Shown piece after piece: positions 6,112 to 53,026 of a stretch of 64,000 nt of DNA (position 1 is the first letter of the stretch; each line of letters opens with the position of its first letter). Source of the stretch: an uncultured Verrucomicrobiae bacterium. GTDB lineage: Bacteria > Chlamydiota > Chlamydiia > Chlamydiales > JAFEGQ01. Location: positions 10,356 through 74,355 of the forward strand of contig CAVUAA010000001.1 in NCBI GenBank assembly GCA_963739345.1. The letters run 5' to 3'. The position numbers were made by a program, and so were the translations under genes. The notes under the pieces are model-generated. The model did not search any database and had not been told where the DNA came from. It worked only from the letters and a program-made list of their open reading frames with translations.

Positions 6112-6114
6112 GCT

Positions 6115-6712: not shown

Positions 6713-6715
6713 GCC

Positions 6716-6879: not shown

Positions 6880-6969
6880 CAGCGGGCAACCGCAGTAGGC
6901 CATGGCCCGCCCGGAAGCAAGGCCGCCACCGAGCGCACGCGAATGCACGCTCACCGCCGCCGCGCTATC

Positions 6970-8336: not shown

Positions 8337-8365
8337 CGCAGCCCGGCCCGGAGGAGAGGCAGACG

Positions 8366-9338: not shown

Positions 9339-9499
9339 TGCCCCGCTTCCGAAGTTCGTGAGACATGGCAGCACTCTCTCACACGAACTTCGGAAGCAAA
9401 GGGGCACTGGCAAGTCGATGATTCTAGTGCCGCTTTCGATTTGGAAGTTCCTGAATGTGTATTGCGGCAAATGGTGCAGGAACTTCAAATCGGCGGCAC
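9335..9499 (+). repeat. Twin-hairpin intergenic repeat, copy 2
   Basis: Same two-hairpin architecture and near-identical sequence as 6716..6879, in the same orientation. Confidence 0.85.
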
Positions 9500-9540
9500 G
9501 AGGTCGGGGTCGCGCGTACGGGTAGCGTGGGAGCAAGGCG

Positions 9541-9944
9541 ATGAGTGCCGATCAATATCCCGAGGTCAGCGATGACGATGCGGGCATCGTCCCGCCGCAG
9601 GGTGGGCGTGGAGCGGAATGGCCGAAGAAAATTCGGACGCTGACGGCGGCGGAGCTTGATCGCCTGACGATCGACGCCGGCGGGCGGTTTTACTGGGACG
9701 GCCGCCTCGTCAACTATGAGCCCCCGCACCGCCCAAGCCTGCGGTCGAGGAGAAACCGGCCGAAGACCCGTCGGTTGACGCGCTCGACCGGTCGGCGATG
9801 GACCTGCTCGATCGCGCGGCACTCGAACTGACGGATCGAACGCCGGTCGAGCCGCTTGACGGCCGCGACGAGCAGGCCATGGCGGACCGGCTCGCGGCAG
9901 ACCACCCCGCTGCGACCGGCGACGAGGTCACAGCCGAACGTCAT
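9541..9944 (+). CDS. Hypothetical protein, frameshifted and apparently cut at the block boundary
   Basis: ORF 9541..9831 (MSADQYPEVSDDDAGIVPP..LTIDAGGRFYWDGRLVNYEPP) continues in ORF 9798..10148 up to about 9944. No family recognised. Confidence 0.3.
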
Positions 9945-10158
9945 ACGCGGGACAGGTCGCGGACGCGCTTGACCTCGACCTGGTCGATGACCGCGTTGAA
10001 GATCTTCTCGCGCGGGAGTGCTGGTAGCCGATCGTCACCAGCACGCAGTCGTTCTTGCGGTACTTGTGCGACTGTCGCCGCAGGCGGATTGTGGCCGTCT
10101 TGCGACCGCGCCGAAGCTGATCGGCGAACACCGACGAGTAGAAGTTGAGGACGCGCAC
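9941..10158 (-). pseudogene. ASCH-domain protein, 3'-truncated at the block boundary and frameshifted
   Basis: MRVLNFYSSVFADQLRRGRKTATIRL..KYRKNDCVLVTIGYQHS (9928..10158), then PREKIFNAVIDQVEVKRVRDLS (9941..10198). The expected distal part is absent. Confidence 0.5.
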
Positions 10159-10219
10159 GGGCGCTCAGCCTACCGATCTGATGACAAGCGCGCGACAACG
10201 CGCGCGAACGATTTCCCGC

Positions 10220-10600
10220 TCACCGGCGTAGGTCGAGTTCCCGAGCGGCCTGCTCCGAGGCATCCAGCGTGCATCCTCGATCTCGTGATCGTGGTCCTCG
10301 AGGCTCCCGATCGGTATTCGAACAGGTAGAACGCCACCCGCTTGTTCCGCCTGCGGCCCCGTCGCTCGTAGCTGTACTCGACGTCGCCGAGCTTTCGATC
10401 AGCTCGGCGATGCACGCCGGTCTCGGCGACCTCGCGGTCGCCGCCGCCTCCTCGGTCTCACCTTCGTCGAGATGTCCCTTGGGCAGCACGAGGACACGGC
10501 GGTGCTGGGCGTCGCGCTTGACCGGCACGACGACGATCACATCGCCGTCGTGAACGACAGCGCCACCGGCCGACAGCTCGATTGTCCCTCGACCACAGTA
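10220..10600 (-). pseudogene. NUDIX hydrolase, frameshifted (5' end approximate)
   Basis: ELSAGGAVVHDGDVIVVVPVKRDAQHRRVLVLPKGHLDEGETEEAAA, then REVAETGV.. (Nudix box GHxExGE..EAA.RE..EE/TG) spread over ORFs 10220..10540 and 10170..10415. Confidence 0.6.
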
Positions 10601-11316
10601 GACGTACCGTCCGAGCGCCTCTGCGTCATGAACGGTCAGCCTTCCGTCCCTGAGTAATTATTCCTGCGCGCTCGAGCACGGCCAGGAACCGGCTGGCCGA
10701 CTCGCGGCGAGGATCCGGCCAGCTGCGCGACCTCGGCCTGCGTGGTGGTGATCGTGACGTCACCCTCCTCCGGCGCCGTCCTGTCCGCGCGAGCCGCCTC
10801 ACCAGCTGAGCGAGGCACGGCGGCCACGCGGCTCTGCACGGTCTGGAACGACTGGCGCGGCCAGCCGCTCGTTGGTGTCGCGCAGTCGCGCCCGAGGGCC
10901 GCGATCAGCTTCACCGGAGATGTCGGGGTGCTCACGCAGCAGCCGGTGCATGTCGGCGCTGAGGATCGCGATCGCCTCGGTCTCCTCGGTCGTCTCCACC
11001 GTCGCCGACCGGCGCTCGCCGTCGAACATGGCCATCTCGCCGAAGATGTCGCCGGGCGCGAAATGCGCGAGCGGGTGATCGACCGCCCGTCGGGATGCTC
11101 GCGGATCGCGCGCGCCCGGCCCGAGCGGACGATGTAGCACGTAGTGCCCTCGTCGCCCTCCTTGAACACCACCTCCCCGGCCTCGAACCGCCGCGGCACC
11201 ACCAACTGTGCCACCTGCTCGAGCTCCTCGGGCGACAGCGCCGAGAAGACCGGAACCCGCCCGAGCAGCTCGACCGTGTCCTGGCCGTTCGCCGACATCG
11301 CCAATGCATACCACAC
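10600..11316 (-). pseudogene. Crp/Fnr-family transcriptional regulator, frameshifted (3' end approximate)
   Basis: cNMP-binding part LLGRVPVFSALSPEELEQVAQLVVPRRFEAGEVVFKEGDEGTTCYIVRSGRARAI, then GDIFGEMAMFDGERRSATVETTEETEAIAILSADMHRLLREHPD (ORF 10799..11419). The HTH part is in further frames. Confidence 0.7.
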
Positions 11317-11361
11317 GCGCTCCCGCGGCGGACGGACTCACGACCGGGCGCGACCCCGGGG

Positions 11362-12621
11362 TCAGGCCGCGTCGAGCGCCTGCTCGCGGCGCCGGCGCCG
11401 GACCGCCGGAGCCGACCACCAGAGCAGGGCGGCGACGAGAGCGACCGGGATGAGCGCGGCGAGCGCGATCAGCGCGACCCCGGCCGCCACGGTCAGCACG
11501 CGCCCGGCGTCGTGCGCAGCCTTGCCGATGCCGAACCCGCCGCTGACCGTGCGAGACGGGCAGCCGGCACGGACCGGGCGTTGATCTCCAGCGAGAGCTG
11601 GCTGAAGCCGACCTGGCGGTCCAGCCGATTCAGCGTCGCCTGGTCGCTCGAGATCGACGCCTCGGCGTCGCGGATCTGCGCCTTCAGGCTGTCGATTTGC
11701 TCGGTCGTCGTGGCGCGGCGAGCTGCTTGAGCAGCGACGTCCGCAGCGCCCGGCGCATCGGCCGAGCGCCCGCTGGGCCGCGCCGTACTGGTCGGTGATG
11801 TCCTGGCTCGAGTCCGTGCGTGAGACCACCTGCGCGCCGTTCAGCGAGGACAGACGGCTCATCGCCTGCCCGAGCGACGCGCTCGGGACGCTGAGCTGGA
11901 AACTCGGCGTACCTGGCCCGATCCGGCCTTGGGTCACGCGTCGAGTTCACGACGATTCCCGTTCACCGCGCCGATCACGTTGTAGACCTGCTCGGCACGT
12001 CGTCGATCCGGTTGGCGCAGCGGCCAGGTTGAGCTGGGCCGCGACTGGACGACCTTGCGGCCGGTGGTCGGCGGCTGCAGCGTCGGCGCCGCGACGACGA
12101 CGCGTCCGGTGCCGACGGCGCGGAACCGCTGCGCGGCGACGCGCTGTCGACGCGCGCTCGACGCGGCGCCGGCGACGTGCCGCCGATCGTCGCCTGGATG
12201 CCGACCGAGCGGCCTGACCCCGAAGCCGCCACCGAGCCGGCGCGACTCGACGACGACGATGACGATGACGATGACGACGAGGACCGACGGCCGCTGCTCG
12301 CCACGAGCACGATCGCCCGACCAGCGCCGCGACGGGCCGCCAGCCCGCCCGTCGCCTGCCAGAACCCGTGAACACCGGCGCCGGCGCCGGCTCGACCGCC
12401 GCCGGCGCCGGCACGTGGGGAACCGCCGCGCCACGCGCTCATCCATCGACCGGGCAAACTCCGGCGGGCATGGCCGGGCGCTCGGCGGACAGAAGCAGCG
12501 CGATCTCGGCCAGATCGGCGTAGCCGGCGTCGACCGGCTCGCCGGCGAGCACGGCGTCGATCGCGTCGAGCGAAGCGGCGATCTCGGGATCGATCGGTTC
12601 GTCGTGGTCAAGCAGTCGCAT
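11362..12621 (-). pseudogene. Anti-sigma-like N-terminus fused to DUF4349-type domain, frameshifted; contains a GAC/GAT triplet run
   Basis: MRLLDHDEPIDPEIAASLDAIDAVLAGEPVDAGYADLAEIALLLSAERPAMP (12439..12621). Distal FQLSVPSASLGQAMSRLSSLNGAQVVSRTDSSQDITDQYGAAQ (11362..11937). The start overlaps the stop of the upstream ECF sigma gene. Confidence 0.5.
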
Positions 12622-13164
12622 TGCAGGCCTTCCTGAGCTTCTCCATCGTGCGGTACAGCAGCGTGCCGGCGTTCGATTCGCTGATCCCGAGCACGCGGGC
12701 CAGCTCGGCGTTGGACAGCCCGGCGTGGAACTTCAGCGCGACGATCTCGCGCTCGCGGGCAGGCAGAGCAGCCAGCGCCGTCTGAACCGCGGTGCGGCGC
12801 AGAGCGACCTCGCCCGCATCTGGATCCGACAGCGATCGGCCTCCGCGGGCTCGGTCACCAGCGCCGCCACCCTCCGACGGCGGCGCAGCTCATCGAGCGC
12901 CGCGTTGCGAGCGATCCCGAACAGCCACGCGCGCTCCTCGCCGCGCCGGCGGTCGAACGTCCGCCGGCGCCGATAGGCGCGCTCGAACGCGAGCGCGGTC
13001 ACGTCCTCGGCCGCGGCCGGATCGCGCAGCAGGGTCATCACGTACGCGTACACGTCGTCGCGGCTCGAGCGGTACAGCGCCTCGAACCGTTCCCACGAGC
13101 CCGGAGCGGACGGCGGCGCGGTCAGCGTCTCGGTCACACCCTCGACTACGCACGAGGGCATCAT
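12604..13164 (-). pseudogene. ECF (sigma-70 family) RNA polymerase sigma factor, one frameshift
   Basis: WERFEALYRSSRDDVYAYVMTLLRDPAAAEDVTALAFERAYRRRRTFDRRRGEERAWLFGIARNAALDELRRRRR (region 2). Region 4 LPAREREIVALKFHAGLSNAELARVLGISESNAGTLLYRTMEKLRKA is in another frame. Confidence 0.75.
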
Positions 13165-13172
13165 CCATCACG

Positions 13173-13890
13173 TCACGAGTTGCTGCAAACAGCCTCGGGT
13201 CGTTGGTGATCACTCCGGTCACGCCAAGCGCCTCGAGCGCGCGCAGTCGAGGCAGCTCGTCGACCGTCCACACGTAGATCTCCCCTCCGGCCCCGAGCAC
13301 GGCCGCACGAGGCGCGGCGTGACCAGCCGCCAGTGCGACCATCAGCGCATCGCAACGCCGCGTCCCGGATCGCCCGCTGCCGCGCGAGCCGGGAGCAGCG
13401 CCGGAACACGTGCAGCGCGACGAACGCCGGCACCCGCGTGGCGCGCGAGCGAAACGGGTCGCGCTTGAGCTTGGGCACCGACCAGCCGAGCCTGACGCCC
13501 GGCTCGGCCGAGCGCAGCAGCGCGAGGCTCTCCTCGTACTGGGTCGAGATCAGGGCTCGGTCGAGCAACCCGTGCTCCCGCAGGGCTTCGAGCACCCGCA
13601 ACTCGTATCCGGGCAGCTTGAGGTCGACGTCGAGGTCGACCCGGCGAACGGCTCGGAGGCGAGGTAGGCCAGCGCCTCCTCCAGCGTGTGCGGCGTCGCG
13701 GGGCGCAGCGTCGACCCAGTCGTGGGCCAGGATCAAGCCCATCGCCGTACTCCTCCCGCAGCACATCGAACTCGATCATGTCGACGCCCGCCGCCACCGC
13801 CGCGTCGAAGCTCGCGAACGTGTTGCCCGGGGCGATCAGGTCGGCGCCCTTGTGCCCGACGCGCCGCAGACCGAGCGCTGCTCACTTCTG
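13173..13890 (-). pseudogene. Glycerophosphodiester phosphodiesterase family protein, frameshifted
   Basis: GVDMIEFDVLREEYGDG, LILAHDW, DLKLPGYELRVLEALREHGLLDRALISTQYEESL, and EIYVWTVDELPRLRALEALGVTGVITNDPRLF, in three frames. Confidence 0.6.
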
Positions 13891-14659
13891 ACATCCGGGG
13901 CACCAGTACGTCGTGCGGTTGGCGTCGCCCTGTCCCCGGGCCGCGATCCTCGTGCCGCACCGCGGGCACGGACGGCCTGCGAATCCGTACACCGCGGCTG
14001 GATCGCCCGGTGTCCGACCGTGGCCGAGCGCATCATCCGCGGGCGCATGGCATCGATGATCGCCATCGCCTGGAGATCGGAAACATCGGCCACGTGACCG
14101 CCACGGGTCGATCGCGGCCTCCCAGCACCCCTCGGCCTTCCAGATGTTCCCGATTCCCGCGACGTTGCGCTGATCGAGCAGGGCATCGCCGAGATGACGC
14201 GTCTGATCGTCCGCCTCGCAGCCGCGCGAGGAACCGCTCCGGTCGAACTCGCGCGCCAGCACGTCGGGCCCGAGCGCGGCGAGGCGCTGATCGAACCGTG
14301 TCCGGCCCTCGGTCATCAACTCGAGCAGCGGCCCGTCGAACTCCACCACTTCGTGCCCGCCGCAGCGGAGCACGATCCAGGCGCGCCGGGCCCGAGCGCC
14401 CCACCGGCGTCCGGCCGATAGACGCCCCACACGCCGGTCATCCCGAGGTGCGAGTGCAGGACCAGATCGCCCTCAAAGCGCAGGAACAGATGCTTGCCGT
14501 GGGTGTCGACGCTGCATGACCGCCCTGCCCAGCGAGCCGATCGGGCCAGCGGTCGAGCGCGTGCCGGGGCTGCGGCGTCAGGATCTCATCGGGCACGCGG
14601 CCTTCGAGCACCGGGCGGATGCGAACCGCGGCGTAGGCGATCGTGTCGCCCTCTGGCAT
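13882..14659 (-). pseudogene. Fpg/Nei-family DNA glycosylase, frameshifted
   Basis: N-terminal catalytic MPEGDTIAYAA (14438..14659). LLDQRNVAGIGNIWKAEGCWEAAIDPW and the zinc finger GRPCPRCGTRIAARGQGDANRTTYWCPGCQK (13882..14430). Confidence 0.75.
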
Positions 14660-16235
14660 TACGCGCTGAGGGTAGCCGCCGCGGACCCTGCTGGAAACCG
14701 AGCGCCACGAGCGCCGGCCCGACGGGCGAGGACAGCGCCGGTTCGCCGTCGACCTTCTCGAGCGCGAGCCGCCTGATCGCGCCCGCCCGAACCTCCTCGA
14801 CCAGCGCGCGCCAGCGCCGGCTCGATCCGGGGGTCATCCGACGCAACGAGCGTCTGCAGCCCGCGCCCGCCGCGCTCGACGTACAGCACGGGCTCGCCTC
14901 CGGCCAGCACCACGTACGCGCCCGGGACCCGGGTCGGGCGCGCGGCTCTCGTCGTCCGGGCCGGCCAGGCCAGCGCCGCACCGTACGGCTGCGCAGGATC
15001 GACCGCGGCGAGCACGACCGGCGGGTCCTCGTCTGCCCCGCCCGACCGCAGCCGCTCGACCGCGCCCGGAGGGCGAACTGCGCGCCGCCCAAGCCCTTCG
15101 ACGAAGTACCCGCGCCGCGCCACGCCCAGCGTCTCCAGCTGCGACAGCTCCGGGATATAGAGCCGAGAACCCGCCGGGCACCCCCTCGGCGCGCACCGTC
15201 TCGCGGGTCAGGATCCCGTAGCGCTCGAGCAGCAACTCGGCGATCGCCCGCCGGCGCGCCGACGGATCGGCCGTCGGCGGGAACAGCGACCCGGTCAGCG
15301 ACCAGCGACCCTGGACCTGCGCCGACGCGCCCGCGCCGCGACGCCGGCGACGCGAACCGGCCGGGTCGGGCGGCTCCTCGCAACCGGTCGCGCTGGGCCC
15401 GGGCCAGGGTCAGCCGCGGCGCGCGCAGCGGCGCGAACGCGTCGTTCGTCGCCTCGCCGGCCCAGGCCAGGTCCCACAGCGCCTCCTGCAACTCCTCGGG
15501 GGCCAGGTCGACGTCGACCAGCAGGTCGGTGAAGAAGCACGCGCCGGCGCCGAGCCGCGCGCGCACCGCCTCGTGCGCCGGCGAGTCGAGCGGCGCGCCA
15601 CTGCCTCTGGGCGGGGGCGCCAATCAGATCGCAGATCTTCGCGGAAGTACAGGGCGACCCGGCCGGAATTCCGCCCAGCGCACCGGCGCCGATCCACACG
15701 ATCTCGCCCGCAGCGCACAGCTGATCGATCCACGCCGGCGAATACGCGCCGACGCGTCGCGGGAGGACGTCGCGCTCCCACACCTCGGCCGGCACGGCCA
15801 GCCCCTGGAGCGGCACCAGCACCTCGCGCAGGCGGTCGACCCCGGCGCCGGTCGCCGGATGGCGGTCGACGCCCTGCCAGGCGGGGAGGAAGCGCGCCAG
15901 CGCGCGGTCGTCGACCGGCTCTACCTCCTTGCGCAGAACGGCCAGCGAGGCCCGGCGCAAGCGCCGCAGCACCTCGGGGTCGCACCATTCGCGCGTCGAC
16001 CCGCCAGGTCGCAGCTCACCCCGGACGAGGTCTCCGGATTCGTTCGAGCCCGGCCAGTACCGCGGACACGTCAACGCCATACCGCGCGCGAACATCGTCC
16101 ACGGTGAACGGTCCGTGGGTCGCGGCGTATCGACGCGCCAACCGGGTCAGCGCGTCCGGCACGTCCTCCAGGAACGCCGCCGGCAGGCCGCCGGGCGGTG
16201 CCGCGCCGAGCCCGTCGCGGTGAAGCGGATGCAGA
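14659..16235 (-). pseudogene. C-terminal part of an Lhr-type ATP-dependent helicase; 5'-truncated at the block boundary and frameshifted
   Basis: FLEDVPDALTRLARRYAATHGPFTVDDV (16016..16333), EWCDPEVLRRLRRASLAVLRKEVEPVDDRALARFLPAWQGV (15295..16095), ACFFTDLLVDVDLAPEELQEALWDLAWAGEATNDAFAPLR, YFVEGLG..VLAAVDPAQPYGAALAWP. The stop overlaps the nei start (TAATG). Confidence 0.6.
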
Positions 16236-17130: not shown

Positions 17131-17186
17131 AGTTGTCATGTTTTCATGTCTGACACGATCGTGTCAGACATGAAAACATGACAACT
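17131..17186. repeat. Perfect 56-bp palindrome (28-bp arms, no spacer)
   Basis: agttgtcatgttttcatgtctgacacga|tcgtgtcagacatgaaaacatgacaact, centred on cgatcg. Lies between the GNAT stop and the SprT-like start. Confidence 0.9.
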
Positions 17187-30432: not shown

Positions 30433-30845
30433 CCCAACTTCCCATGTAAACAGGGGTCAGGCCTGACATTTGGACATTAGCCAATGCGACTTTTCACAAT
30501 TTGGGGCCTGGCCCTGAGCATTACCCACATCTCACAAGCTTGTTGAATATTTCTGCGCCTAATACCATGTCCTGCAATCGGTTATAACCTTCCCAAATCG
30601 TTAGCCAACCAGGGTCCCCATCCCCTTTTCGAGCGAGAAAACCCCCAAGCCTAGCCACGCAAACCCAAAACTCTCGAAGAGTCGGATTTTTGAGGCGGTA
30701 GTAGGCTGAAACTAGCTGTAGCATCCGACTATCCACTCGCTCAATTGCAGGTACGTTAGGCTCCAACCGTGCCCACTGCCGCAGGGCCAATAGCTGTGTC
30801 GCAATCACTCCTAGAAAACCAAGAAGAACTAGAATCCGGCCTGCG

Positions 30846-32003
30846 ACCCAGATTGCTACCCTGACTCGGCTTAAGGGCTAGCGAAGTGGTTCAGATACGA
30901 CCGGAACGCCGACGGCAAGGGTACTCCCTTGCCGAGAAGTTCCGGGAAGTAGATGGGCCGCTGCAGCAGCCCTTAAGCCGAGCCAATTTTCTTAAGTGAC
31001 TCGAGAGAGACTGTAGGCCAGGATAGCACTCATGATCCGGATGGAAAATCCAAGTGCAGTGGAGGCTCGAATGCTACGAGGTAGCAGTCCCGTGATGCAG
31101 CTAAACGCTGTCTCCACGATTTGTCTTCGACTACTAATCGCCTTCTCTGCCTCTTCCGTTCGCTTTCTTGTCGAATTCGGATGCTTTCTTCTGGCGAGAA
31201 GCTCGATGGAAGAATCCTCTGCAAGAACGTCTTCGAGGTCATAGCAATTGTAGGCTCCGTCAGCATAGAGCTTCGATTGTGGTGGGAGATCAAGCTCCAT
31301 CTTCCATAAGACAGCAACGTCATTTCTGCATGCTGGCTCCATCGCCACCTCAACTGGTTCTCCCGCACATGTCACAACCATATGAACCTTAATGCCGCAG
31401 AAATATTTCTGTTTCGACGGAGCGTAGCCGATGTATTCCTTGCCGAGGAAGAACTTCCGTCGATCAATCCGCTGCTTCTTGCAGCACTCCACTGGAAAAC
31501 TGTCCACAGCGTACTCAGACGAGGAGTTAGTCTTCCTGAATATCAGAGCTAGAAAGCGAAATACTGCCGTCCATATTGGCCATGGAATTTTGTGCAGACG
31601 ACGATTGAGCCGGCTCTCACTCAAAAGATTGGGGAAGTAGCGAGATTGGCGGCAAAACCAGCAGGTTTTGCGATGGTTCCCACCAAATAGTTGCCCGGAC
31701 ATGATCGAGAACGTGATGATTTCAGCTGTGCTCATTCGAGCTTGCCGGTCATCTTCAAATCCCATAGCTTTAATGACTTCATCGCAAACGACGTAGGTGA
31801 TAATGATTTGCATGTCCATGTGCCTTCTCCTTTTTGGGGCATTCAAAAAGAAAAAATATACACGGTTTACCACAGGACTTCAGTGTTGCACTCATCTGCC
31901 ACGTATCAGCTCTTGGCAAGGGAGTACCCTTGCCGGCGAGCTGCTACGCGACATCTAAGCACAACACTGAAGTCCTGTGGCAAATCAGGGTAGCAATCTG
32001 GGT
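30846..32003 (-). mobile_element. IS982-family insertion sequence with 5-bp target-site duplication
   Basis: Terminal IRs acccagattgctaccctga (30846..30864) and tcagggtagcaatctgggt (31985..32003). Direct repeat ctgcg at 30841..30845 and 32004..32008. Confidence 0.85.
30992..31819 (-). CDS. IS982-family transposase
   Basis: MDMQIIITYVVCDEVIK..LLSESRLNRRLHKI..AVDSFPVECCKKQRIDRRKF..GYAPSKQKYFCGIKVHMVV..LYADGAYNCYDLE (DDE layout, SR(F/L)NRRLH motif). Confidence 0.8.
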   Translation of the reverse strand: MDMQIIITYVVCDEVIKAMGFEDDRQARMSTAEIITFSIMSGQLFGGNHRKTCWFCRQSRYFPNLLSESRLNRRLHKIPWPIWTAVFRFLALIFRKTNSSSEYAVDSFPVECCKKQRIDRRKFFLGKEYIGYAPSKQKYFCGIKVHMVVTCAGEPVEVAMEPACRNDVAVLWKMELDLPPQSKLYADGAYNCYDLEDVLAEDSSIELLARRKHPNSTRKRTEEAEKAISSRRQIVETAFSCITGLLPRSIRASTALGFSIRIMSAILAYSLSRVT

Positions 32004-33321
32004 CTGCGTATTTCAGCTGACTTTCTTCGATCCTGCATCCGGTTTTCAGCGCTTTGTGATAGTCCTCTATCAGCCAACGGCGACGGTATATTTCCATGAT
32101 GCGGAGCGCATCGTCTGCCGATTCAATCGGCAGACTAGTAGTGACTATCCATTCAAGTTTGGGCCTTTTTGGGCAGTGCACGCGAACAAAAGAAAAACAG
32201 GCTGTCTCCTTGGTACGCGCGGTAGCTGGCGGTGGGATTGCTGCGTTTCCCCAAGACAAAACTAGCTCCGCTTCTCCAGAGAATTCCTCGGCATTTCGTG
32301 CTCGTAAGTACATCGTGGTCGATCCGCCGGCTGTTAGCCGGCGGATCCAGTCAAATAGCCTATCGCGCTTGCCATCGACTACGATGTGACGGTTGTACTT
32401 CGCTCTCACGACAAAATCCCATCCTAGCTCCTTCGCTCCACACATAAAGTCATGGATGTCACTTCCCCGATCACCCACTGTGATCCATTCCGACTTCGGT
32501 GGTGGACTCCCGATTTTTTTGAGAGTTTCGAGCCACACGTGCGACTCATTCCTCTTCTTTTTCGACGCCTCGTCTCTGACCCATACCGTCTGAGACGCCA
32601 ATCCCAATACATCTGTCTGTCCCTGATCAAAACGAACAGCTAGGCAAGTGTGCATCATGAGCCCTTGACCCGACGCGTCTGCGGTCGGGCCAAGGCCATT
32701 GATGCAGGGCTGAGAGTTATACAGGAGCTCAGAGCCATCCTGGACGAACAGAACCGCATCTTCGCCTTTCTTAGCCTGTTTGATTACCTCTTCGTAGTGC
32801 GGTTTCTGAATGTCTTGGTGAGATGCATTTTCAGAAGCACAGAGTCGGTAAGCAGCCTTCACCCCCGACCACTCATCGAACGCTCTAGCAATAGGTCGAC
32901 GAGGATTTCTCGCTAGCGCCTTTGCCACTCTGATAGCGCGTTTGTTTAGACGGACATCTCCGAGATTGATGTTATGCCACTGACGTTTGACCCATGCTGT
33001 ATCCATTGATTCCTCCCTAGCAGTGTTGGTGGAGCAACAAGGATATGTCAACTTTCTAGTTGTCTGCACATCCGTAAGGCTTTCGAGAAAACCTTCACTA
33101 GAAAAGATCTCTTAGGTTGTTGGTTGCTAACGCATTACGTCGGTTTTCGAAAAAGATGTGGGTAATGCTCAGGGCCTGGCCCCAAATTGTGAAAAGTCGA
33201 CAAGTCAGCGTTCCAATCCTCCGCGATAGAAGCGGTTAGGTCGCTTCATGGTTCCGACGAGAGTTGGGGGCTGCTCCTCCGTCATGAAACGGGCTGGAGG
33301 AACTGTGTTGCAGAACTAGAT

Positions 33322-37364: not shown

Positions 37365-37783
37365 TGGTGGAGGTGGGGAGGATCGAACTCCCGTCCTAGG
37401 TAAGGTCAGTCAAAGACCTCTACATGCATAGTGTCTCGATAATAGTTGGCAACGTCGTGAGACACACCGCTGAAACCAACTTGCCCCATTTAAGCTCGGA
37501 CCCATCCCCTAGGAGCGGCGGAGATCAAGCCCATACCAAGTAAATAACGATCGTCCAAAGACCCCTGGTCCAATCCCTGGCGATCGAGGTACCTAAGGGT
37601 TTAGCTTAGGCAGCCATTGCCCACTCAGCTTCAGCCTCAGCGCGAGCGCCTCGGAAATCTACTGCGTGGATTTTGTTAGTCGTTTTAGCAACTAAACGGT
37701 TTTGTCGGTTTTTTTAGGAGGCCCACCGACGTCCTCCGCATGCCATCAGTGCATCACTTCCCAGTCGAAGCCATTACACCCCC
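37365..37783 (-). ncRNA. ssrA: tmRNA (SsrA)
   Basis: 5' GGGGGTGTAATGGCTTCGACTGGG..GCATGCGGAGGACGTCGGTGGGCCTCCTAAAAAAACCGACAAAA. 3' GGACGGGAGTTCGATCCTCCCCACCTCCACCA. Tag ORF from GCT at 37689. Confidence 0.85.
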
Positions 37784-45139: not shown

Positions 45140-46201
45140 ATGGAACTCTGCGGCGCCCGTCGCCGGGTGATCCGGACGGCCGAGCCGGTCGGACGCGGTC
45201 GACTCTCACGTCGGGGACGTGAGCTCGTCGATTTCTCAAGCAACGACTATCTAGGATTGGCCGGCGATTCTCGCCTAGCGGCCGCGAGCTGTGAGGCGAT
45301 TGAGCGGTGGGGCGTCGGCGCCCGCGCCTCCCGGCTAATCAGTGGTTCTCATCCGCTCTATGAAAAGGTCGAGGAACGGCTGGCAGAGTTACTTGGAGCG
45401 GAACGGGTTCTGATTTTTAACAGCGGTTTTCAGGCCAACTGCACTGTCCTTCCTGTGCTGGTTGAAAAGGGCGGGGTGCTCCTGCTCGACAGAGCCGTTC
45501 ACAGGAGTTTAGTGGAAGGAGCTCGTTCGAGCGGTGCGCGGTTGTTCCGCTTCCGAGACGAGGCGCATCTTGAGAGGCTTCTCGAACAGCACCGGGGGGC
45601 CAAACTGTGGGTAGTCACTGAGTCGATTTTTAGCACCGACGGACGGCGACCAGATTTGGCCGCACTTCGTCGACTGGCCGATCGGGCGGGGGCCCGTCTG
45701 CTGGTCGACGAGGCACACGCGTTTGGGATGACTGGCGAGCAGGGACTGGGCCTTTGCCGGGACGCCGATGTGACTGTGGGGACCTTTGGCAAAGCGGTCG
45801 GTGTTTTCGGCGCCTTTGTGGCTACCTCTGCGGAGCTTGCCGACCGTCTGGTCAATCACTGTGCGGGCTTGATCTACTCGACCGCACTGCCGCCGGCAGT
45901 GTTGGGCGCGGTCGACCGGGCGCTCGAACTCATCCCGGAGATGGAGGCGGAGCGGCAGGCCGTCCGTGCTCTGGCCTCCGTTTTGGGAGCCAACTCCCAC
46001 ATCATCCCCATTGAAATAGGAACTGATGCCGACGCGCTTGCTGCAGGAGAGCAGCTGGAGAGGGAGGGGTTTGCGGTGGGTGTGCTGCGCCCCCCAACCG
46101 TTCCAGGAGGGCGTGCGTCATTGAGAATCACCTTGTCGGCCCTACATCACCTCGACGATGTGGAGCGGCTAAGAGAGAGAATTGAGCGGTGGTCGAACTA
46201 A
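45140..46201 (+). CDS. bioF: 8-amino-7-oxononanoate synthase
   Basis: VDFSSNDYLGLAGD..RLISGSHPLYEKVEERLAELLGAERVLIFNSGFQAN..LLVDEAHAFG..TFGKAVG. Starts 4 nt after the lexA stop. Confidence 0.85.
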   Translation: MELCGARRRVIRTAEPVGRGRLSRRGRELVDFSSNDYLGLAGDSRLAAASCEAIERWGVGARASRLISGSHPLYEKVEERLAELLGAERVLIFNSGFQANCTVLPVLVEKGGVLLLDRAVHRSLVEGARSSGARLFRFRDEAHLERLLEQHRGAKLWVVTESIFSTDGRRPDLAALRRLADRAGARLLVDEAHAFGMTGEQGLGLCRDADVTVGTFGKAVGVFGAFVATSAELADRLVNHCAGLIYSTALPPAVLGAVDRALELIPEMEAERQAVRALASVLGANSHIIPIEIGTDADALAAGEQLEREGFAVGVLRPPTVPGGRASLRITLSALHHLDDVERLRERIERWSN

Positions 46202-46794
46202 TTTTGCAACACGGATGGAGCTTTGGCTCTGAGTTTTGGCGTCCATGGGAAGGGGAGCGATGGACGCGTGTCACTGCTCTGAATCGGGGATACTGTGGAG
46301 AGGCTGCTACATCGGTTCCCTCGCGGCTCCCAGGCTGCCGCCGGGTTGTCGTCGCGCACTCTTTTGGTGGTCACTTGGTGGCCGCTGACTTGCTGGCGAC
46401 AGCAGACCGTCTCGTTCTGATCTCCAGTTTTGAGGGGCCTCTTCCGGAGGCGATGCTTGGACAGCTCATTGCCGGGATGGAACAGGATTCCCCAGGTGAG
46501 CTGGCCAGGTTTGATGGGCTGTGTGATCTCGATCCCCAGGTTCGCACCGGGTTGAATCAGGAGTTGCTGCTGAAGGATCTGTGTGCGATGCGTACGTCTA
46601 CCCTCGACCTTGAGCGACTCAAGGCCATTCCGGAGATTGTCGTGGTTGCGGGTAGTCGCGACCGAGTGATCCCATCGGCGCTGAGCAAGCGGCTGCATCG
46701 GCGCTTGCCCGGTTCCCGACTGCTTGTTGTCAAAGATGCCGGACATGGCTTACCCTCTCTTGACCCCGACACTTGCTGGGAGGTGTGTCAATGA
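46189..46794 (+). CDS. Short alpha/beta-hydrolase, candidate pimeloyl-ACP methyl ester esterase (BioH/BioG-type by position)
   Basis: LILQHGWSFGSEFW, nucleophile elbow VVAHSFGGHLV, VKDAGHGLP. Sits between bioF and bioC with overlapping stop/start codons. Confidence 0.55.
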   Translation: MVELILQHGWSFGSEFWRPWEGERWTRVTALNRGYCGEAATSVPSRLPGCRRVVVAHSFGGHLVAADLLATADRLVLISSFEGPLPEAMLGQLIAGMEQDSPGELARFDGLCDLDPQVRTGLNQELLLKDLCAMRTSTLDLERLKAIPEIVVVAGSRDRVIPSALSKRLHRRLPGSRLLVVKDAGHGLPSLDPDTCWEVCQ

Positions 46795-47519
46795 AAACGG
46801 CTCAGGTGATGGAACACTTTTCGTCCGCTGCGAAGACCTACGACGACTGCGCCAACCTGCAACGTCGTGTCGCAGCTCAGCTCGCTCAGCGGTTGCCCGA
46901 TATCCCTCGGGGGGAGGTGCTGGAGATCGGTTGCGGCACTGGCCTGTTCACCGACCATCTCTGCCGCCGCTATCCGGATCGTTGGTTGACGATCACTGAT
47001 GTTTCCCCGGCAATGGTTTCTCGCTGTTGGGGTAAACTCTATCAACAGCTTCCAGAGCGAGCTCGGTTTCAAGTGTTAGATGGGCAGGAGGTCAGCTTGG
47101 ACCGTTCCTTTGCTCTCATCGTCGGTAGCCTTGTGTTTCAGTGGTACGACCATCCCCTGATGGGATTGACCCACGCCTATCGGGCGTTGAAGCCGGGTGG
47201 CTGGTTGGTTGGTGCTATTCCTGTCGATGGATCGTTTGTTGAATGGCGCGATGCTTGCCAGCGGCTCGGCCTCTCTTACACCGGTCTCCCTCTCCTCTCC
47301 ACAGAGGAGATTGCCGGTCACTTCGATATCGACCCCGAAGTGGTCACAGTCACCGACCCCTATCCATCAGCGCTCGCATTTTTCCGCAATCTTAAGGGGA
47401 TTGGGGCGCACGCTTCGGCGCGCAGCCTTGGCCACCAGTTGATACAATTGGTGCGGCAGTGGGAAGGGCCGGTCGAGGTGACGTATAAGGTCCTATTGTT
47501 GAGGGTGCAGAAGCCATGA
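46791..47519 (+). CDS. bioC: Malonyl-ACP O-methyltransferase
   Basis: FSSAAKTYDDCANLQRRVA..VLEIGCGTGLFTDHL (SAM motif I). ATGA overlaps on both sides. Confidence 0.75.
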   Translation: MKTAQVMEHFSSAAKTYDDCANLQRRVAAQLAQRLPDIPRGEVLEIGCGTGLFTDHLCRRYPDRWLTITDVSPAMVSRCWGKLYQQLPERARFQVLDGQEVSLDRSFALIVGSLVFQWYDHPLMGLTHAYRALKPGGWLVGAIPVDGSFVEWRDACQRLGLSYTGLPLLSTEEIAGHFDIDPEVVTVTDPYPSALAFFRNLKGIGAHASARSLGHQLIQLVRQWEGPVEVTYKVLLLRVQKP

Positions 47520-48145
47520 CGGATTGGCCGGATCAGTTTGTCGTCACAGGGACCGACACCGACGTCGGGAAGAGTGTCGTAGCGGCCATGTTGACCCTCG
47601 GCCTTGGAGCTCACTACTGGAAGCCGGTTCAGGCGGGACATCCGACCGACACCCAGTGGATCCAGCAGGTGACCGAGCTTCCTGAAGAGAGATTCTGTCC
47701 CGAAGCGCACTGCTTTGCGCGAGCGGCCAGTCCCCACCTCTCAGGTGATGTGGACCTCTCCGAGGTGGTGACTCCACGAAGGGAACGCCTGGTGATCGAA
47801 GGAGCGGGCGGACTTCTTGTGCCGATCAACCGGCGGGAGACGATGGTCGATCTGTTTGCCGCCCTCGCCCTGCCCGTCCTGGTCGTCGCCCGCTCAACTC
47901 TCGGGACAATCAACCACACCTTAATGACGCTTGAGGCCCTCCGAGCCGGCCGCCTTGAGGTGGTCGGAGTGATCCTCAATGGTCCGATTGATCGCGAAAA
48001 TGGGGAAGCGATCGCCCACTACGGATCGGTTTCGATCGTCGGTGGCGTCGCACCGATGAATCCAGTTAATCGTCCCAATTTGGAGAGAGCCTATGCCCAT
48101 CTGGAGACCGCTTACACAGGCCAAGCATGCACCGCCGCCCCTTGA
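47516..48145 (+). CDS. bioD: Dethiobiotin synthase
   Basis: FVVTGTDTDVGKSVVAAML..YWKPVQAG..LVIEGAGGLLVPI. Confidence 0.85.
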   Translation: MTDWPDQFVVTGTDTDVGKSVVAAMLTLGLGAHYWKPVQAGHPTDTQWIQQVTELPEERFCPEAHCFARAASPHLSGDVDLSEVVTPRRERLVIEGAGGLLVPINRRETMVDLFAALALPVLVVARSTLGTINHTLMTLEALRAGRLEVVGVILNGPIDRENGEAIAHYGSVSIVGGVAPMNPVNRPNLERAYAHLETAYTGQACTAAP

Positions 48146-49331
48146 AGTTACAGCTGCTCGGGGCCCGTATCTCATTCTGAAAGATGGCCAGAAGGTGCTC
48201 AACTGTATCTCCAGTTGGTGGTTCAACACCGTTGGCCACGCCCATCCCAGCATCGCCGAGGCGGTCTATCAGCAGATGCAAGCGGTTGAGCATGTCAATT
48301 TCGCCGACTTCACGCACGAGCCGGCTGAGCGACTGTGCGAGCGGGTGATCGAGTTGGCGCCAGGTGATCTCACCTACGCTTTTTTCTCCGACAACGGCTC
48401 GACGGCTGTCGAGGTGGCCCTCAAAATGGCACTGCAGTACTGGCACAATTTGGGAGAGACTCAGAGGAACCTGATCGTCCGATTTGAAGGGGGCTATCAC
48501 GGCGACACCTTTGGCGGCATGGCTGTGGGCGTCGATTCACCCTACTATCGTCCCTTTTCCAAGCTGCTCTTCGATGTGGCCACTGTCCCCTTCCCCGGCC
48601 ATCCTGACAAGGAAGTCGAGGCGTTGGAGGCCCTCGAGCGGACGCTGGATGAACGGTGTGCCGCTATCGTGATCGAGCCCCTGATTCAAGGGGCTGCGGG
48701 GATGCGCATCTGCCGCCCCGTATTTCTCCAAGCGCTTGAGCGTTTGGCGCGCGAGCGGCAAGTTTTGACCATCTACGACGAGGTGATGACAGGTTTTGGA
48801 CGGACGGGCGACTGGTTTGCCGCAACGCGAGCCGGCACCCACCCCGATCTCCTCTGCCTCTCGAAGGGCTTAAGCGGAGGCTACCTTCCCATCGCCCTCA
48901 CGCTGGCTACGCCTACTATCTATGACGCGTTTCTCAGCGACGACCCCTACCAGACGTTCGCTCACAGTCACTCTTTCGGGGGAAGTGCATTGGGGTGTGC
49001 CGCGGCGCTAGCGGCGCTAGATCTACTCGCTGACGAGCCATTCCGGCCCTTTGAAGGGTGGCACCAGGAGGAGATGGTCGAGCTTGCCAAACATCCAGCA
49101 GTGAGCAATCCCCGCGTGTGTGGCACGTGCGCTGCGTTTGAAGTGGTGACTGATCAGCCGAGTGGCTACTACAACCAGGTAGGGAAAGTACTCAAGGCGC
49201 GCCTATTGGAGCGCGGGTTCTACTTCCGCCCGCTGGGCGACACCTTCTTCTTCCTTCCCCCCTATTGCCTTACACGTGGGCAGCTTGCCGATGCCTACGC
49301 CGCTGTCCGGGTCGAGCTCGATCGCCTCTAG
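48093..49331 (+). CDS. bioA: Adenosylmethionine-8-amino-7-oxononanoate aminotransferase
   Basis: [70 protein letters not shown]. Confidence 0.9.
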
Positions 49332-50272
49332 TCCGAGAGCGTCGAAAAGCTGCGCGTCGTCGTCGGCTTGGCAATTTTGCGTCGTCAACAGTTTGTCGCT
49401 CACCCAAATCGAATTGGCTCCGGCCAAAAAGCAGAGGGTCTGTTCTGCCGCTGTCAATTGGTTGCGTCCAGCTGAGAGGCGGATCATCGCCGCCGGCATC
49501 AAGATTCGAGCGGTCGCAATCATCCGCATCCGATCGGCCACCGACACTTTTTCTTTCTGGCCGCCGAGAGGTGTCCCTTCAATGGGAACCAATGTGTTGA
49601 TTGGAACCGATTCGGGGTGTTTGGGCAACGTCGCCAGTGTGTGGAGCAGATCGATCCGATCGTCGTGCCCTTCGCCCAAACCTAAGATGGCTCCGCAGCA
49701 GACGGTCAGGCCGGAATCGCGCACGTTTTTGAGGGTCTCCAAACGGTCTGCGTAGGAACGGGTGGTGATCACTCTGGGTAGAATTTCTCCGACGTGTCGA
49801 GGTTGTGATTGTAGGCGTAGAGCCCTGCCTCCTTGAGCCGCTTCGCCTGCTCAGGCGTCACCATCCCCAGGGTGCAGCAGACTTGTAGCCCCATCCCATC
49901 CACAGTGCGCACCATCTCCAGCACCTGTTCGAACTGGCGGCTGTCGCGCACCCCTCGCCACGCTGCTCCCATGCAGAAGCGGGAGGCCCCCTTTGCTTTC
50001 GCCGCCCTAGCCGCACGCACGACATCTTCCAACGGAGCGATCCTCTCCGCCTCCACACCTGTCTGATAGCGGCTCGACTGCGAGCAGTACTTGCAGTCCT
50101 CAGAACAGCCCCCCGTCTTTACGCTGAGGAGCGAACACGTTTGGATCTTGGTTGCGTCGTGGTGTTTTCGATGGACCGTAGCTCCCTGATAGATCAGATC
50201 AATCAGCGGTCGCCAGTAGATCGCCGCCACCTCTTGCCGGGTCCAGTCATTGCGAATCTCACTCATTGGCAA
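49203..50272 (-). pseudogene. bioB: Biotin synthase, split by a 1-nt frameshift at ~49770
   Basis: 5' ORF 49769..50272 SVKTGGCSEDCKYCSQS (radical-SAM CxxxCxxC)..[14 protein letters not shown]. 3' ORF 49203..49772 (V)[33 protein letters not shown]. The junction reads gag tga tca where gag gtg atc is expected. Confidence 0.85.
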
Positions 50273-50397
50273 GCAGTCTACCCCGTCTCGACGATTTTCG
50301 TCGACTCGAGCTCAGCCCAACTGATTGGGGTGGCTTGGTTGATCGTAGAACCGGCGACCTACATGAATTGAGCTAATCGGTCCGTCTTTCCTCTCGT

Positions 50398-50425
50398 CAG
50401 CTGTTCACTTTATAGTGAACAGCTG
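50398..50425 (+). promoter_or_regulatory. 12-bp-arm palindrome followed by a T-run in the bioB / abiEi divergent intergenic region
   Basis: cagctgttcact ttat agtgaacagctg ctcttttt. Confidence 0.4.
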
Positions 50426-50530
50426 CTCTTTTTGCTGATATTCAGTGGATTAACGTCGCGCGCTGCCGAGGATAAATCCGCATATAGTGCGCTAGTTAAA
50501 CGTTAACTGCGCAAATGATATAAGGAGGGG

Positions 50531-51271
50531 GTGATTGATAGGGGGACGGTGTGTGCGGTGTTAGAGGTGACGTCGTTGCAAGCGAATGCTATGTTGAGCC
50601 AGTGGTCGCGAGCGGGGTGGATCTGTCGTGTCAGCCGGGGGGTCTATGTTCCGGTTCCTTTGGAAACGGAGTTTGCCGATGAGGGGGAAGAAGATCCGTG
50701 GCTGATTGCAAGCCATCTCTTTTCACCTTGCTACCTTGGGGGGTGGTCCGCAGCAGAGATGTGGCACCTGACCGATCAGATTTTTCAGACAGTGGTGGTC
50801 TTCACTACGCACTACTTTAGGACGAAGAATCGGCGCATTGGATCGACGGAGTATCTCCTGAAGAAGGTGACAGAAGAGGGAATGGTGGGGCTGTCGACCG
50901 TTTGGCGTGAGCGTGGCAGTGTGAAGGTTTCGGATCCTAGCAAAACGATCCCTGACATCTTCACGTATCCGTCGCTGGGTGGAGGCATCCTGCACTGCAT
51001 TGACATCTTTCGTGCCTACCTCCGTTCGGAGCATCGTGATCTAAATCGTATCGCCGAGTATATTGGCCGCATGCCCAACAGGGTGGCATTTAAAAGGTTG
51101 GGGTTCGTGGCCGAGCATCTCTGTTCCGAGGAGGTCGACTTTATTTCGGTTTACGCTGACGGGATCACTCGAGGGTATTCTTTGTTGGATTCGCGACTAA
51201 AGGGAGGTCGGCATGTGAGCCGGTGGCAGCTAAAGGTCCCGTTGGATCTGCTGGAAGGCCGATTTGCTTGA
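50531..51271 (+). CDS. AbiEi-family type IV toxin-antitoxin antitoxin / transcriptional regulator
   Basis: ..LSQWSRAGWICRVSRGVYVPVPLE..PWLIASHLFSPCYLGGWSAAEMWHLTDQ..VKVSDPSKTIPDIF. RBS aaggaggggg upstream. Paired with the downstream AbiEii gene. Confidence 0.7.
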   Translation: MIDRGTVCAVLEVTSLQANAMLSQWSRAGWICRVSRGVYVPVPLETEFADEGEEDPWLIASHLFSPCYLGGWSAAEMWHLTDQIFQTVVVFTTHYFRTKNRRIGSTEYLLKKVTEEGMVGLSTVWRERGSVKVSDPSKTIPDIFTYPSLGGGILHCIDIFRAYLRSEHRDLNRIAEYIGRMPNRVAFKRLGFVAEHLCSEEVDFISVYADGITRGYSLLDSRLKGGRHVSRWQLKVPLDLLEGRFA

Positions 51272-52258
51272 GAAGCTGGTGATCTTGCGTCGGGCAAAAA
51301 ACCTTGGATTGTCACCGACAACAGTGGAGAAAGACTACGTTCTAAGTTGGGTCCTAGCGGGAGTAGCAGCGCATCCGGTCACGCGTAGTGGATTTTCAAG
51401 GGCGGGACCTGCCTGAAGAAGTGCTATTTTGCTGACTACCGTTTTTCGGAAGATCTGGATTTCAGCGTTTCTGGATCTCTGGAATGGTCCGTCGATGAAC
51501 TGGAAGGGATCTTCAGGACAATAGGACGATGGGTTCGGGAGCAGACCAATATCGAAGTCATTGATCGCTCTGTTCGGTTCAATGTCTACCGCAATCCCCG
51601 TGGCGGGATGTCGGCTCAAGGAAGACTCAATTATCGTGGGCCGCTCCGTCACAAGACAAACTACCCGGGTTTGAAGATTGATCTGACCGCTGATGAGATG
51701 GTGGTTCATTCGCCTGTCAAACGGCAAATCCTGCACGGCTACCTAGTACTCCATCCAGAAAGTTCTGGGAAGTTGAGAAGGCGCGACCCCCAGAGGCAAG
51801 GCGCGCGATGGAGGCGATGTGTTCATCGCCGAAGCAGCGCAACGAAGCATCTGGGAGGTCAGCCGCGCTCAACTTGTCAGAACTTTCTGGATGGAGTACT
51901 AGATGGTCCATTGTCGCAGGAGGCGCGGTGCTACTCGTTCGAAGAACTCTTTGCCGAAAAACTTATGGCGTTAACGGATCGGGCTCGTCCGCGGGATCTC
52001 TACGATGTGGTGGAGCTGCACCAGCAGCAACAGTACGCGTTGGACAGCGGCCGCATCGAGAGGGCGCTAGCGAGAAAATGTGAGCACCGCGCCATTCCCC
52101 AACCATTGCTCGCAGCTGCGAACAACCCAGAAAAACGGGAACGGCTGATCCAGTCGTGGGCGACGATGCTTAGGCATCAGTTGCCCGACCTGCCGTCAGC
52201 TGCTGTCTATCTTGACGCACTTCCCGCCGTGTTCGATAAGCTAGGCCTCGGGATCTAG
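51264..52258 (+). pseudogene. AbiEii/DUF1814 nucleotidyltransferase toxin, with a frameshift at ~51388 and an in-frame 156-nt insertion
   Basis: LEKLVILRRAKNLGLSPTTVEKDYVLSWVLAGVAAHP (frame a), then WIFKGGTCLKKCYFADYRFSEDLDFS..LKIDLTADE..CYSFEELFAEKLMALTDRARPRDLYDVVEL (frame b). Confidence 0.75.
51744..51901. mobile_element. TA-flanked palindromic miniature element inserted in frame in abiEii
   Basis: Perfect terminal IRs gtactccatccagaaagttctg (51746..51767) and cagaactttctggatggagtac (51878..51899), flanked by TA at 51744..51745 and 51900..51901. Further sub-terminal complementarity aagttgag/ctcaactt. Confidence 0.75.
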
Positions 52259-53026
52259 CGTTTCGTCCGTGGGGCGGTGGGTGACCAAGCGCCAGGTGGC
52301 GAGGGTGAGGCCGAGCGTGAGGTAGCCCCAGGCGCCGGCAGCAAAGACGAGGGGGAAATAGCGGAGGATCCCGTAGAAGAAGACGACGGCAAGGCCGGTG
52401 GTGAGGAAGATAAGGTTTTGAGAGGAGAGGCGAGCGTGGAGGATGTTGAGGGCGGGGAAGCGGACGCGACTCACCATGAGGTAGCCGAGGGCGACCATGG
52501 CGGCGCCGAGGATGAGGCCGCGGATGTGGTCAGAGAAGACGAAGGGGAATTGGGGGGCAGAGAGGAGAAGGGTGAGCGAGACGAGCCCGGCTGCTGCTGC
52601 GGGAATGGGGAGGCCAACAAAGTGGTGGCGGGAGCCTGTGGGGGGGTTGACGCTGTAGCGGACAAGGCGGAGGACGCCGCAAATAGCAAAGAGCATGGCG
52701 GCAAGAGAGAGGATAATGCCGACGTCGGCCTCTGAATCTAGGGTAAAGCTCTTGAGGGTGAGAACGGCAGGCGCGACGCCAAAAGTGACGCCGTCGGCAA
52801 GTGAGTCGAAGATCTGTCCAAAGTCGCTCTCAGCTCGGATGAGGCGGGCGGTGAGGCCATCTAGCATGTCAGCAAAACCGGCGATGATGAGAAGGACGGC
52901 GGCAGCCTTGAGAACAGGGTAGGGAGGAGCTTCGGGCGTGACAAGACTCATCTTAAAGATGACAAACAGGCCGCAGGCGAGGCCAAAGGCGGTGATTAAA
53001 TTGGGCAGCAGTCGTACACGTCTCAT
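52241..53026 (-). CDS. pssA: CDP-diacylglycerol--serine O-phosphatidyltransferase
   Basis: MRRVRLLPNLITAFGLACG..ADMLDGLTARLIRAESDFGQIFDSLADGV. The upstream part of ORF 52241..53272 is non-coding read-through. Confidence 0.8.
   Translation of the reverse strand: MRRVRLLPNLITAFGLACGLFVIFKMSLVTPEAPPYPVLKAAAVLLIIAGFADMLDGLTARLIRAESDFGQIFDSLADGVTFGVAPAVLTLKSFTLDSEADVGIILSLAAMLFAICGVLRLVRYSVNPPTGSRHHFVGLPIPAAAAGLVSLTLLLSAPQFPFVFSDHIRGLILGAAMVALGYLMVSRVRFPALNILHARLSSQNLIFLTTGLAVVFFYGILRYFPLVFAAGAWGYLTLGLTLATWRLVTHRPTDETLDPEA

Follow-up and report, generated by a model that had tools for sequence, protein, structure and literature searches.

A low-copy palindromic miniature element flanked by CTAG lies in frame inside an abiEii toxin gene

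A 154-bp palindromic element lies within abiEii, a gene for a nucleotidyltransferase toxin, in a 64,000-nt stretch of DNA (positions 10,356 to 74,355 of contig CAVUAA010000001.1, assembly GCA_963739345.1; this whole stretch is referred to here as the window). The element is very probably a miniature inverted-repeat transposable element (MITE), that is, a non-autonomous DNA transposon without a gene of its own: terminal repeats lie at its ends, a short target duplication borders it, it is small and lacks a transposase, and it occurs as dispersed copies with site polymorphism. Assignment to the IS630 type in particular is reasonable and less secure. Weighing MITE nature and IS630-type mobilisation together, we place the probability of this overall reading at about 0.78. 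An initial annotation, written from the letters alone, had described a TA-flanked, miniature inverted-repeat insertion in abiEii that preserves the open reading frame (ORF) and resembles the Rickettsia palindromic elements (RPEs), and that description is borne out by further copies, by AbiEii homologues that are without the segment and by a pair of empty and filled sites; both tests that the annotation had named as able to refute it spoke for it.

Structure of the element and its insertion site

The element and its junctions comprise the following parts.

51746-51899, no strand: element proper, 154 bp, a near-full-length foldback too short for a transposase gene
51746-51777, + strand: left terminal inverted repeat, from the inverted-repeat search and from compensatory changes with the right arm across copies
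51868-51899, - strand: right terminal inverted repeat, from the inverted-repeat search and compensatory changes
51743-51746: left CTAG junction, in which TA 51744-51745 would be the first copy of the target-site duplication
51899-51902: right CTAG junction, in which TA 51900-51901 is the second copy of the putative duplication

The 22-mer GTACTCCATCCAGAAAGTTCTG has exactly two matches in the window, at 51746-51767 (+) and 51878-51899 (-), and none in shuffled sequence; the perfect 22-bp terminal repeats proposed initially are both in place and unique within the window. Perfect pairing covers 22 nt, or 25 nt if the flanking CTA is included, and the arms extend to 35 nt at 94% complementarity (51743-51777 with 51868-51902, repeat finder), in keeping with the sub-terminal complementarity noticed earlier. 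The left terminal inverted repeat contains an internal palindrome, CCAGAA-AG-TTCTGG, and the terminal repeat occurs in the element family as the variants GTACTCCATCCAGAAAGTTCTG and GTACCCAATCCAGAAGGTTCTG. Fold prediction, one of the checks suggested for the element, returned for the 160 nt from CTAG to CTAG a single long hairpin as RNA (-109 kcal/mol, z = -13.1) and a single hairpin as DNA (-62 kcal/mol, z = -12.6).

The TA dinucleotides reported on either side are present at 51744-51745 and 51900-51901, each embedded in a full CTAG tetranucleotide. Together with one TA the element measures 156 nt, or 52 codons, and removal of 51746-51901 (156 nt) restores TAC CTA GAT GGT, encoding Y L D G within ..HGY LDGPLS.., both as first stated. 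A promoter and terminator scan of the element found no such site within it. Rfam 15 returned no match at gathering score, only sub-threshold generic hairpins such as miRNA precursor models (23-25 bits against cut-offs of at least 100), BLAST of the element against plasmid and phage collections returned no match, and its three stop-free peptides matched no NCBIfam or Pfam model at E <= 10.

The insertion in abiEii

The host gene belongs to a short accessory cassette.

51264-52258, + strand: abiEii (PF08843 nucleotidyltransferase toxin), the host gene, with the 52-codon insertion and a 1-nt frameshift near 51384
50531-51271, + strand: abiEi-like antitoxin gene, upstream of abiEii and overlapping it, with a weak AbiEi_4 match
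~50281-52288: whole abiE cassette, 2 kb long and accessory, not present in L038, a syntenic relative with 85% nucleotide identity

A search of a large protein collection yielded 7661 AbiEii homologues, 19 of which were aligned, and the 52-residue segment is missing from all 19, the closest included. In this closest aligned homologue (P0006, ~60% identical), encoded on a contig (L039) that carries the same abiEi-abiEii gene pair without the element, the homologous site reads CAC GAT TAT TCG GAC. After excision of the element and correction of the frame, AbiEii gives one continuous PF08843 match (residues 30-261, profile positions 2-229 of 238, E = 1.4e-38). The alignment marks the segment as an insertion and not a native AbiEii domain. 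A reading in which the 52 residues form a native, lineage-specific variable loop or domain, with the palindrome incidental, could draw on the open frame and on a position between two conserved blocks, but it has to contend with the 0 of 19 homologues (P0006 among them), the different site sequence in L039, element peptides that match no Pfam or NCBIfam family, and the copies in unrelated genes described below.

In the AlphaFold model of AbiEii, the insert forms a loop (residues 162-217, between strands 153-156 and 221-224) with a predicted local distance difference test score (pLDDT) below 50, a value to be expected of any segment without alignment depth, while the remaining fold is confident (mean pLDDT 79). 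A Fic protein that carries another copy was modelled as well, and there the insert is a low-confidence loop at residues 232-287, between two helices. Loop placement of both inserts is weakly indicative of tolerance, with n = 2 models.

The original statement that the abiEii frame stays open across the element holds for the element, which ORF 51608-52258 traverses without a stop, but not for the gene, which is not one intact ORF. The homologue alignment reveals a 1-nt deletion near 51384 (AGT TGG to AGTGG) that separates ORF 51264-51416 from ORF 51608-52258. Either abiEii is already a pseudogene or the deletion is a sequencing or consensus error. The neighbouring bioB (49203-50272) has an AA-to-A loss relative to its intact orthologue in L038 (85% identical); single-base losses in two-base homopolymers thus split both bioB and abiEii, through real decay or consensus errors.

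Further copies and an empty/filled site pair

Five copies were found in all: that in the window, three at the DNA level on other contigs (L001, L037 and L040), and one as protein only (P0002). All four DNA copies measure exactly 160 nt from CTAG to CTAG, align without gaps, and carry CTAG at both ends. L001, a contig from an NCBI metagenome-assembled genome (MAG), was found by scanning one genome for each GTDB species with an exact 20-mer. Its copy (1861-2020) is 98.8% identical to that of the window, differing at 2 of 160 positions, has the opposite orientation, and lies in frame in a Fic-domain gene (ORF 1147-2580), splitting the Fic domain.

The remaining copies emerged from protein searches. 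When the three stop-free element peptides were searched against 5.8 billion proteins, the window's own ORF (P0001) and two others (P0002 and P0003) were retrieved. P0002 (116 aa) is encoded on a separate 469-kb NCBI/ENA contig, which may belong to the window's own assembly, and has the element at the 3′ end of a small ORF; it starts in the +2 frame, changes frame behind a 1-nt indel and terminates at the TAG of the element, and its limits (ACT AGT ACT.. to ..TAC TAG) are consistent with CTAG junctions. P0003 is encoded on the JGI contig L037, where the copy (4164-4496) is intergenic and has an unrelated 165-bp inverted-repeat element nested in it at 4201-4365 (ends CGAGCTCGGGATT, 8-bp duplication GTTAAGAA). 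The same contig carries a solo palindrome, TTAACCCGAGCTCGGGTTA, at 4014-4032. A further protein, P0245, came from searching 1.84 billion representative proteins exhaustively with HMMER; it is encoded on L040, a contig from JGI metagenome sample 3300082211, which also yielded L037. The L040 copy (7436-7595) is 87.5% identical and lies in frame in an ATPase_2/DUF234 gene that is without its N-terminal ~100 residues and whose DUF234 domain becomes detectable only once the element is excised. The search for further copies that the initial annotation had called for thereby located them in Fic, ATPase_2/DUF234 and intergenic contexts, the intragenic ones in frame.

Other matches were set aside. L002, from the GTDB 20-mer scan, is a chance match and not a copy, and inspection by BLAST and by eye identified the 16 matches of a 19-mer scan of JGI metagenomes and the 18 matches of a 17-mer scan of viral contigs as single-arm chance matches. 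A 24-nt match in L015 falls within a phage tail-fibre-like ORF and its partner arm is missing. Three hits from the representative protein library (P0246, P0247 and P0248) align over short stretches of the query at 33-50% identity and were not counted as copies; P0246 and P0248 are tandem-repeat proteins.

Evidence of mobility comes from the Fic gene. A search with the L001 Fic protein minus the element retrieved the filled site, namely the L001 protein itself with the insert present (P0125, 472 aa), together with an empty one, the window genome's own orthologue (P0126, 420 aa, 96% identical), which is without exactly the 52 residues. P0126 is encoded on a 1,252,598-bp contig, equal in length to the one that carries the window's own AbiEii and NrdA proteins. 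The alignment reads ..NDGK-LD.. in P0126 and in five more distant Fic homologues, all without the 52 residues. P0125 and P0126 therefore constitute an empty/filled pair, with Fic empty and AbiEii filled in the window genome and Fic filled in a close relative. Such a pair indicates that the element is mobile.

The same observations dispose of two alternatives. A native AbiEii loop is refuted by the Fic copy, the homologue alignment and the empty/filled Fic pair, and the recurrence of the same 160 nt at 87.5-99% identity in a Fic gene, an ATPase gene and a spacer leaves it a negligible probability. Equally negligible is an assembly artefact such as a long-read foldback chimera. The assembly does bear signs of imperfection (bioB and abiEii have each lost 1 nt in a homopolymer, and the composition of one 16-kb block is foreign), but the element recurs with the same length and junctions in three other independent records (L001, L037 and L040), and the fifth copy, P0002, sits on a separate contig; these independent copies refute an artefact.

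Open reading frames and conservation of the foldback

A CTAG within coding sequence permits four combinations of frame and orientation; only -2 is closed by stops, whereas +0, +2 and -0 are open throughout. Three or more open frames occur in 1.5% of plain shuffles and in 2.0% of hairpin-preserving shuffles. The ORF on the opposite strand (51717-51911) that had been claimed is present. The element is "in frame" because its length together with one TA, 156 nt, equals 3 x 52, and the informative property is the lack of stops: since 156 nt are added and three of the four usable frames are open, insertion into a gene would usually produce a 52-residue loop and not a truncation. All three intragenic copies use the phase CTA/G. 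In the L040 copy the sole remaining open frame is the one in use, and in the L037 copy the -0 frame has gained a stop.

Pairing of the two arms is preserved among copies, with 98% of the cells in the four-copy alignment paired. In six foldback pairs both partners have changed, against none in slid controls; five of these pairs belong to the terminal repeat and one lies further inward; a random-substitution simulation of the window/L037 comparison alone gave P = 2e-5 for at least four compensatory pairs. Two of the six double changes are specific to L040, which suggests that arm complementarity is still being maintained. This complementarity could be kept by transposase recognition of both ends, by hairpin formation or by arm-to-arm correction.

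The open frames and the foldback raise the question of whether the element is retained for a function, either silencing toxin-type genes through RNase III or by obstructing translation, or modifying them as a surface loop that is tolerated, like the protein-coding palindromes of Rickettsia. Three of the five copies sit in frame, free of stops, in accessory genes of toxin/defence type (AbiEii, Fic and ATPase_2/DUF234), the length is a multiple of 3 with three of four usable frames open (at least three in 1.5-2% of shuffles), one of the six double changes that keep complementarity lies beyond the terminal repeat, and both modelled insertions fall in loops between secondary-structure elements. 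Set against this, the sample is biased toward ORFs, most copies having come from protein searches, and the frame losses in L040 and L037 suggest purifying selection on the host ORF, or survivorship, and not selection on the element. The low pLDDT of the insert is, as noted above, what any such segment would give. Two of the three host genes may moreover be dead, because abiEii is frameshifted and the ATPase has lost its N-terminal ~100 residues. We consider retention for function unlikely. Scarcely more probable is a family of RPE-like protein-coding palindromes outside Rickettsia, with length, stop-free frames and foldback shaped by selection and with copies persisting preferentially in toxin/defence genes; on these terms the host lineage would be intracellular and probably chlamydia-like, and the element would attenuate genes via a long RNA duplex or add a surface loop.

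Target signature and candidate transposases

Under the MITE reading, a transposase encoded elsewhere would bind both terminal inverted repeats (~25-35 nt each), excise the element, and paste it into the TA of a 5′-CTAG-3′ target, with duplication of the TA. The likeliest mobilisers would be IS630/Tc1-mariner transposases, acting in trans. For IS630, Table 1 of PMC2577343 gives a 2-bp duplication and the target motif CTAG, and PMC2170065 likewise a TA duplication within CTAG, both citing Tenzen & Ohtsubo 1991; PMC2170065 also describes cut-and-paste insertion of IS630-family elements into TA. IS630/Tc1 mobilisation is favoured because a TA duplication within CTAG is this published IS630 signature. 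The identity of the transposase, a 2-bp rather than a 4-bp duplication, and the production and function of any fusion protein are all presumptive.

Several observations weigh against this account. The copy number is low: the searched collections yielded five copies, of which two come from a single metagenome sample, and the exact 19-20-mer scan of GTDB genomes and JGI metagenomes contributed one true match. Four of the five copies are known either from this window or through searches based on ORFs, so that intragenic copies are favoured in the sample. Neither the 64-kb window nor ~60 kb of related loci yielded a transposase, of the IS630 family or any other, with matching ends: the Pfam gene lists of L037, L038, L039 and L040 contain no transposase family, and on L001 only the Fic ORF was scanned. 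The Tc1/IS630 assignment in the initial annotation accordingly stands on its TA/CTAG target signature and goes without a cognate transposase in these sequences. Finally, because the outermost bases of the element are G at the start and C at the end, a 2-bp TA duplication and a 4-bp CTAG duplication predict identical junctions, which therefore fit more than one transposase family.

The only transposases in the window are a Tn5-like ORF and the DDE_Tnp_1_3 gene of an insertion sequence (IS) at 30845-32004; the ends of both are unrelated to those of the element. The IS at 30845-32004 was rejected as a partner on account of its ends (GACCCAGATTGCTACCC), and an element-like patch within it, near 30910-30950, is not significant.

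An IS5-family transposase (IS5 or IS427 group) is a different candidate mobiliser, in which case the duplication would be 4 bp of CTAG (YTAR) and the element 152 bp, from TACTCC to GGAGTA. The IS5 group, as catalogued in ISfinder, makes 4-bp YTAR duplications. CTAG, and not TA alone, is found at both ends of every copy, and excision restores the same sequence under either model. The sites are nonetheless all CTAG, with none of the CTAA or TTAG that YTAR would predict, a weak argument at n = 4-5, and no IS5-type partner with these ends was found; IS5-family ends also typically begin with G, not TACTCC. We regard IS5-type mobilisation as an outside possibility. Less probable by far is a single-strand element of the IS200/IS605 palindrome-associated type, or a REP/RAYT-type repeat, targeting CTAG. 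It would fit the strong hairpin potential of the single-stranded DNA and the fixed border tetranucleotide. In IS200/IS605 and REP/RAYT elements the hairpins are subterminal, the ends are asymmetric and the target is not duplicated, but the inverted repeats here are symmetric, reach the very ends and are flanked by a direct repeat, and no TnpA(Y1) or RAYT gene occurs among the ORFs scanned with Pfam.

Relation to known palindromic elements

NCBIfam holds a domain model for RPE1, and the peptides of the present element match neither it nor any other NCBIfam or Pfam model. The element shares with RPEs, as these are characterised in PMC10969869 and PMC2229807 (citing Ogata 2000, 2002), a palindrome of ~150 bp that lies in frame in protein-coding genes and adds ~50 residues at positions compatible with the fold. 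It differs in host lineage, in its unrelated sequence, and in having a TA/CTAG duplication at every copy, whereas the TA motif is not found in all RPEs (PMC2229807). A handful of copies in accessory toxin-type genes also contrasts with the dozens of RPEs in conserved housekeeping genes. The element resembles an RPE in behaviour only and, judged by its sequence, is not one.

The initial annotation had called insertions of this kind best known from Rickettsia and thought one in a chlamydia-like genome worth a second look; the literature makes it less surprising than suggested, since in-frame intragenic MITEs with open frames are documented well beyond that genus, and besides RPEs they include ERIC (127 bp), the 107-bp Correia/NEMIS and YPAL (168 bp), reviewed by Delihas (PMC2229807, PMC10969869). 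Those three differ from the present element in their proteobacterial hosts, high copy number and documented RNA-level roles (RNase III processing, mRNA stability). Also close are MITEs derived from the IS630 family, such as RUP of Streptococcus pneumoniae, which are likewise ~100-170 bp long with terminal inverted repeats and foldback (PMC2229807, PMC2577343, PMC2170065). RUP-type MITEs also insert at TA and duplicate it, and the preferred target of IS630 itself is a TA inside CTAG. RUP, however, has ~100 copies, mostly intergenic, and is mobilised by IS630-Spn1, while the present element is apparently of very low copy number and no cognate IS was identified for it. What is added here is a new low-copy MITE family; in-frame palindromic MITEs as such have already been described. 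A literature search for MITEs in Chlamydiae found nothing specific.

Host lineage and other features of the window

The contigs L001, L037, L038, L039 and L040 have 55-59% GC, and the tetranucleotide profiles of L001, L037 and L038 correlate with that of the window body at 0.82-0.96. The further copies all lie in relatives within the same lineage of ~55-59% GC. L001 (JAJFJX010000291.1), a 5-kb contig of 56.6% GC, is filed under a Panacagrimonas MAG in GTDB; it is probably mis-binned, because its tetranucleotide profile is that of the window lineage and its Fic gene shares 96% identity with the one in the window genome. The gene content of the window (hrcA-grpE-dnaK, a Mip-like FKBP, a type-2 IleRS, nrdAB and a PhoH-PIN protein) is compatible with a chlamydia-like host. 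A transfer-messenger RNA (tmRNA) gene on the - strand (37365-37783) encodes an unusually long tag peptide, AKTTNKIHAVDFRGARAEAEAEWAMAA, which we take to resemble the Parachlamydia tag.

Positions 1-16000 stand apart, with 65-75% GC against 52-59% in the remainder and a tetranucleotide correlation of only 0.58. The genes there are typical of free-living proteobacteria (TctC, PanB, NnrU and a cNMP-binding regulator), and many have truncated Pfam coverage or belong to overlapping ORFs. It may represent a foreign island, or else a chimeric join made in assembly.

Further mobile and palindromic elements occur in the window. The IS at 30845-32004 is 1160 bp long, has perfect 20-nt inverted repeats (GACCCAGATTGCTACCCTGA) and encodes a 292-aa DDE_Tnp_1_3 transposase; it abuts or interrupts the Tn5-like transposase ORF (31906-33069; Tnp_DNA_bind and DDE_Tnp_1). 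A second palindromic element of ~190 bp (21864-22057) lies in a spacer, with a related fragment at 3389-3434 of L037; it shares an end (GACCCAGATTGCTACCC) with that IS and is therefore probably a MITE of it. At 17131-17186, AGTTGTCATGTTTTCATGTCTGACACGA and its complement form a perfect 56-nt palindrome, which recurs nearly unchanged in L038 (5647-5707) but in another place, the corA/rmuC spacer; in the window that spacer is empty. This sequence may be a third small mobile palindrome.

Two other segments deserve mention. A biotin-synthesis block (45187-49015), comprising a BioF-like aminotransferase, a methyltransferase and a BioA-like class-III aminotransferase, is missing from the syntenic relative L038. 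The ~2 kb at 22100-24000 contain no long ORF, only short repeat-like coding pieces interrupted by stops, and are possibly a decayed repeat-protein gene.

Implications

The element provides a clean example of a MITE that enters coding sequence and leaves it unbroken, and close relatives supply both the filled and the empty site; it implies no new mechanism. For annotation, the consequence is that in AbiEii, Fic and the ATPase alike the 52 residues are transposon sequence and not protein domains. The compensatory changes in the foldback, together with the repeated occurrence in genes of toxin type, offer modest clues as to whether such palindromes are tolerated or used. Should the palindrome after all have been shaped by selection, selfish DNA compatible with translation would have evolved convergently in a second clade of intracellular bacteria.

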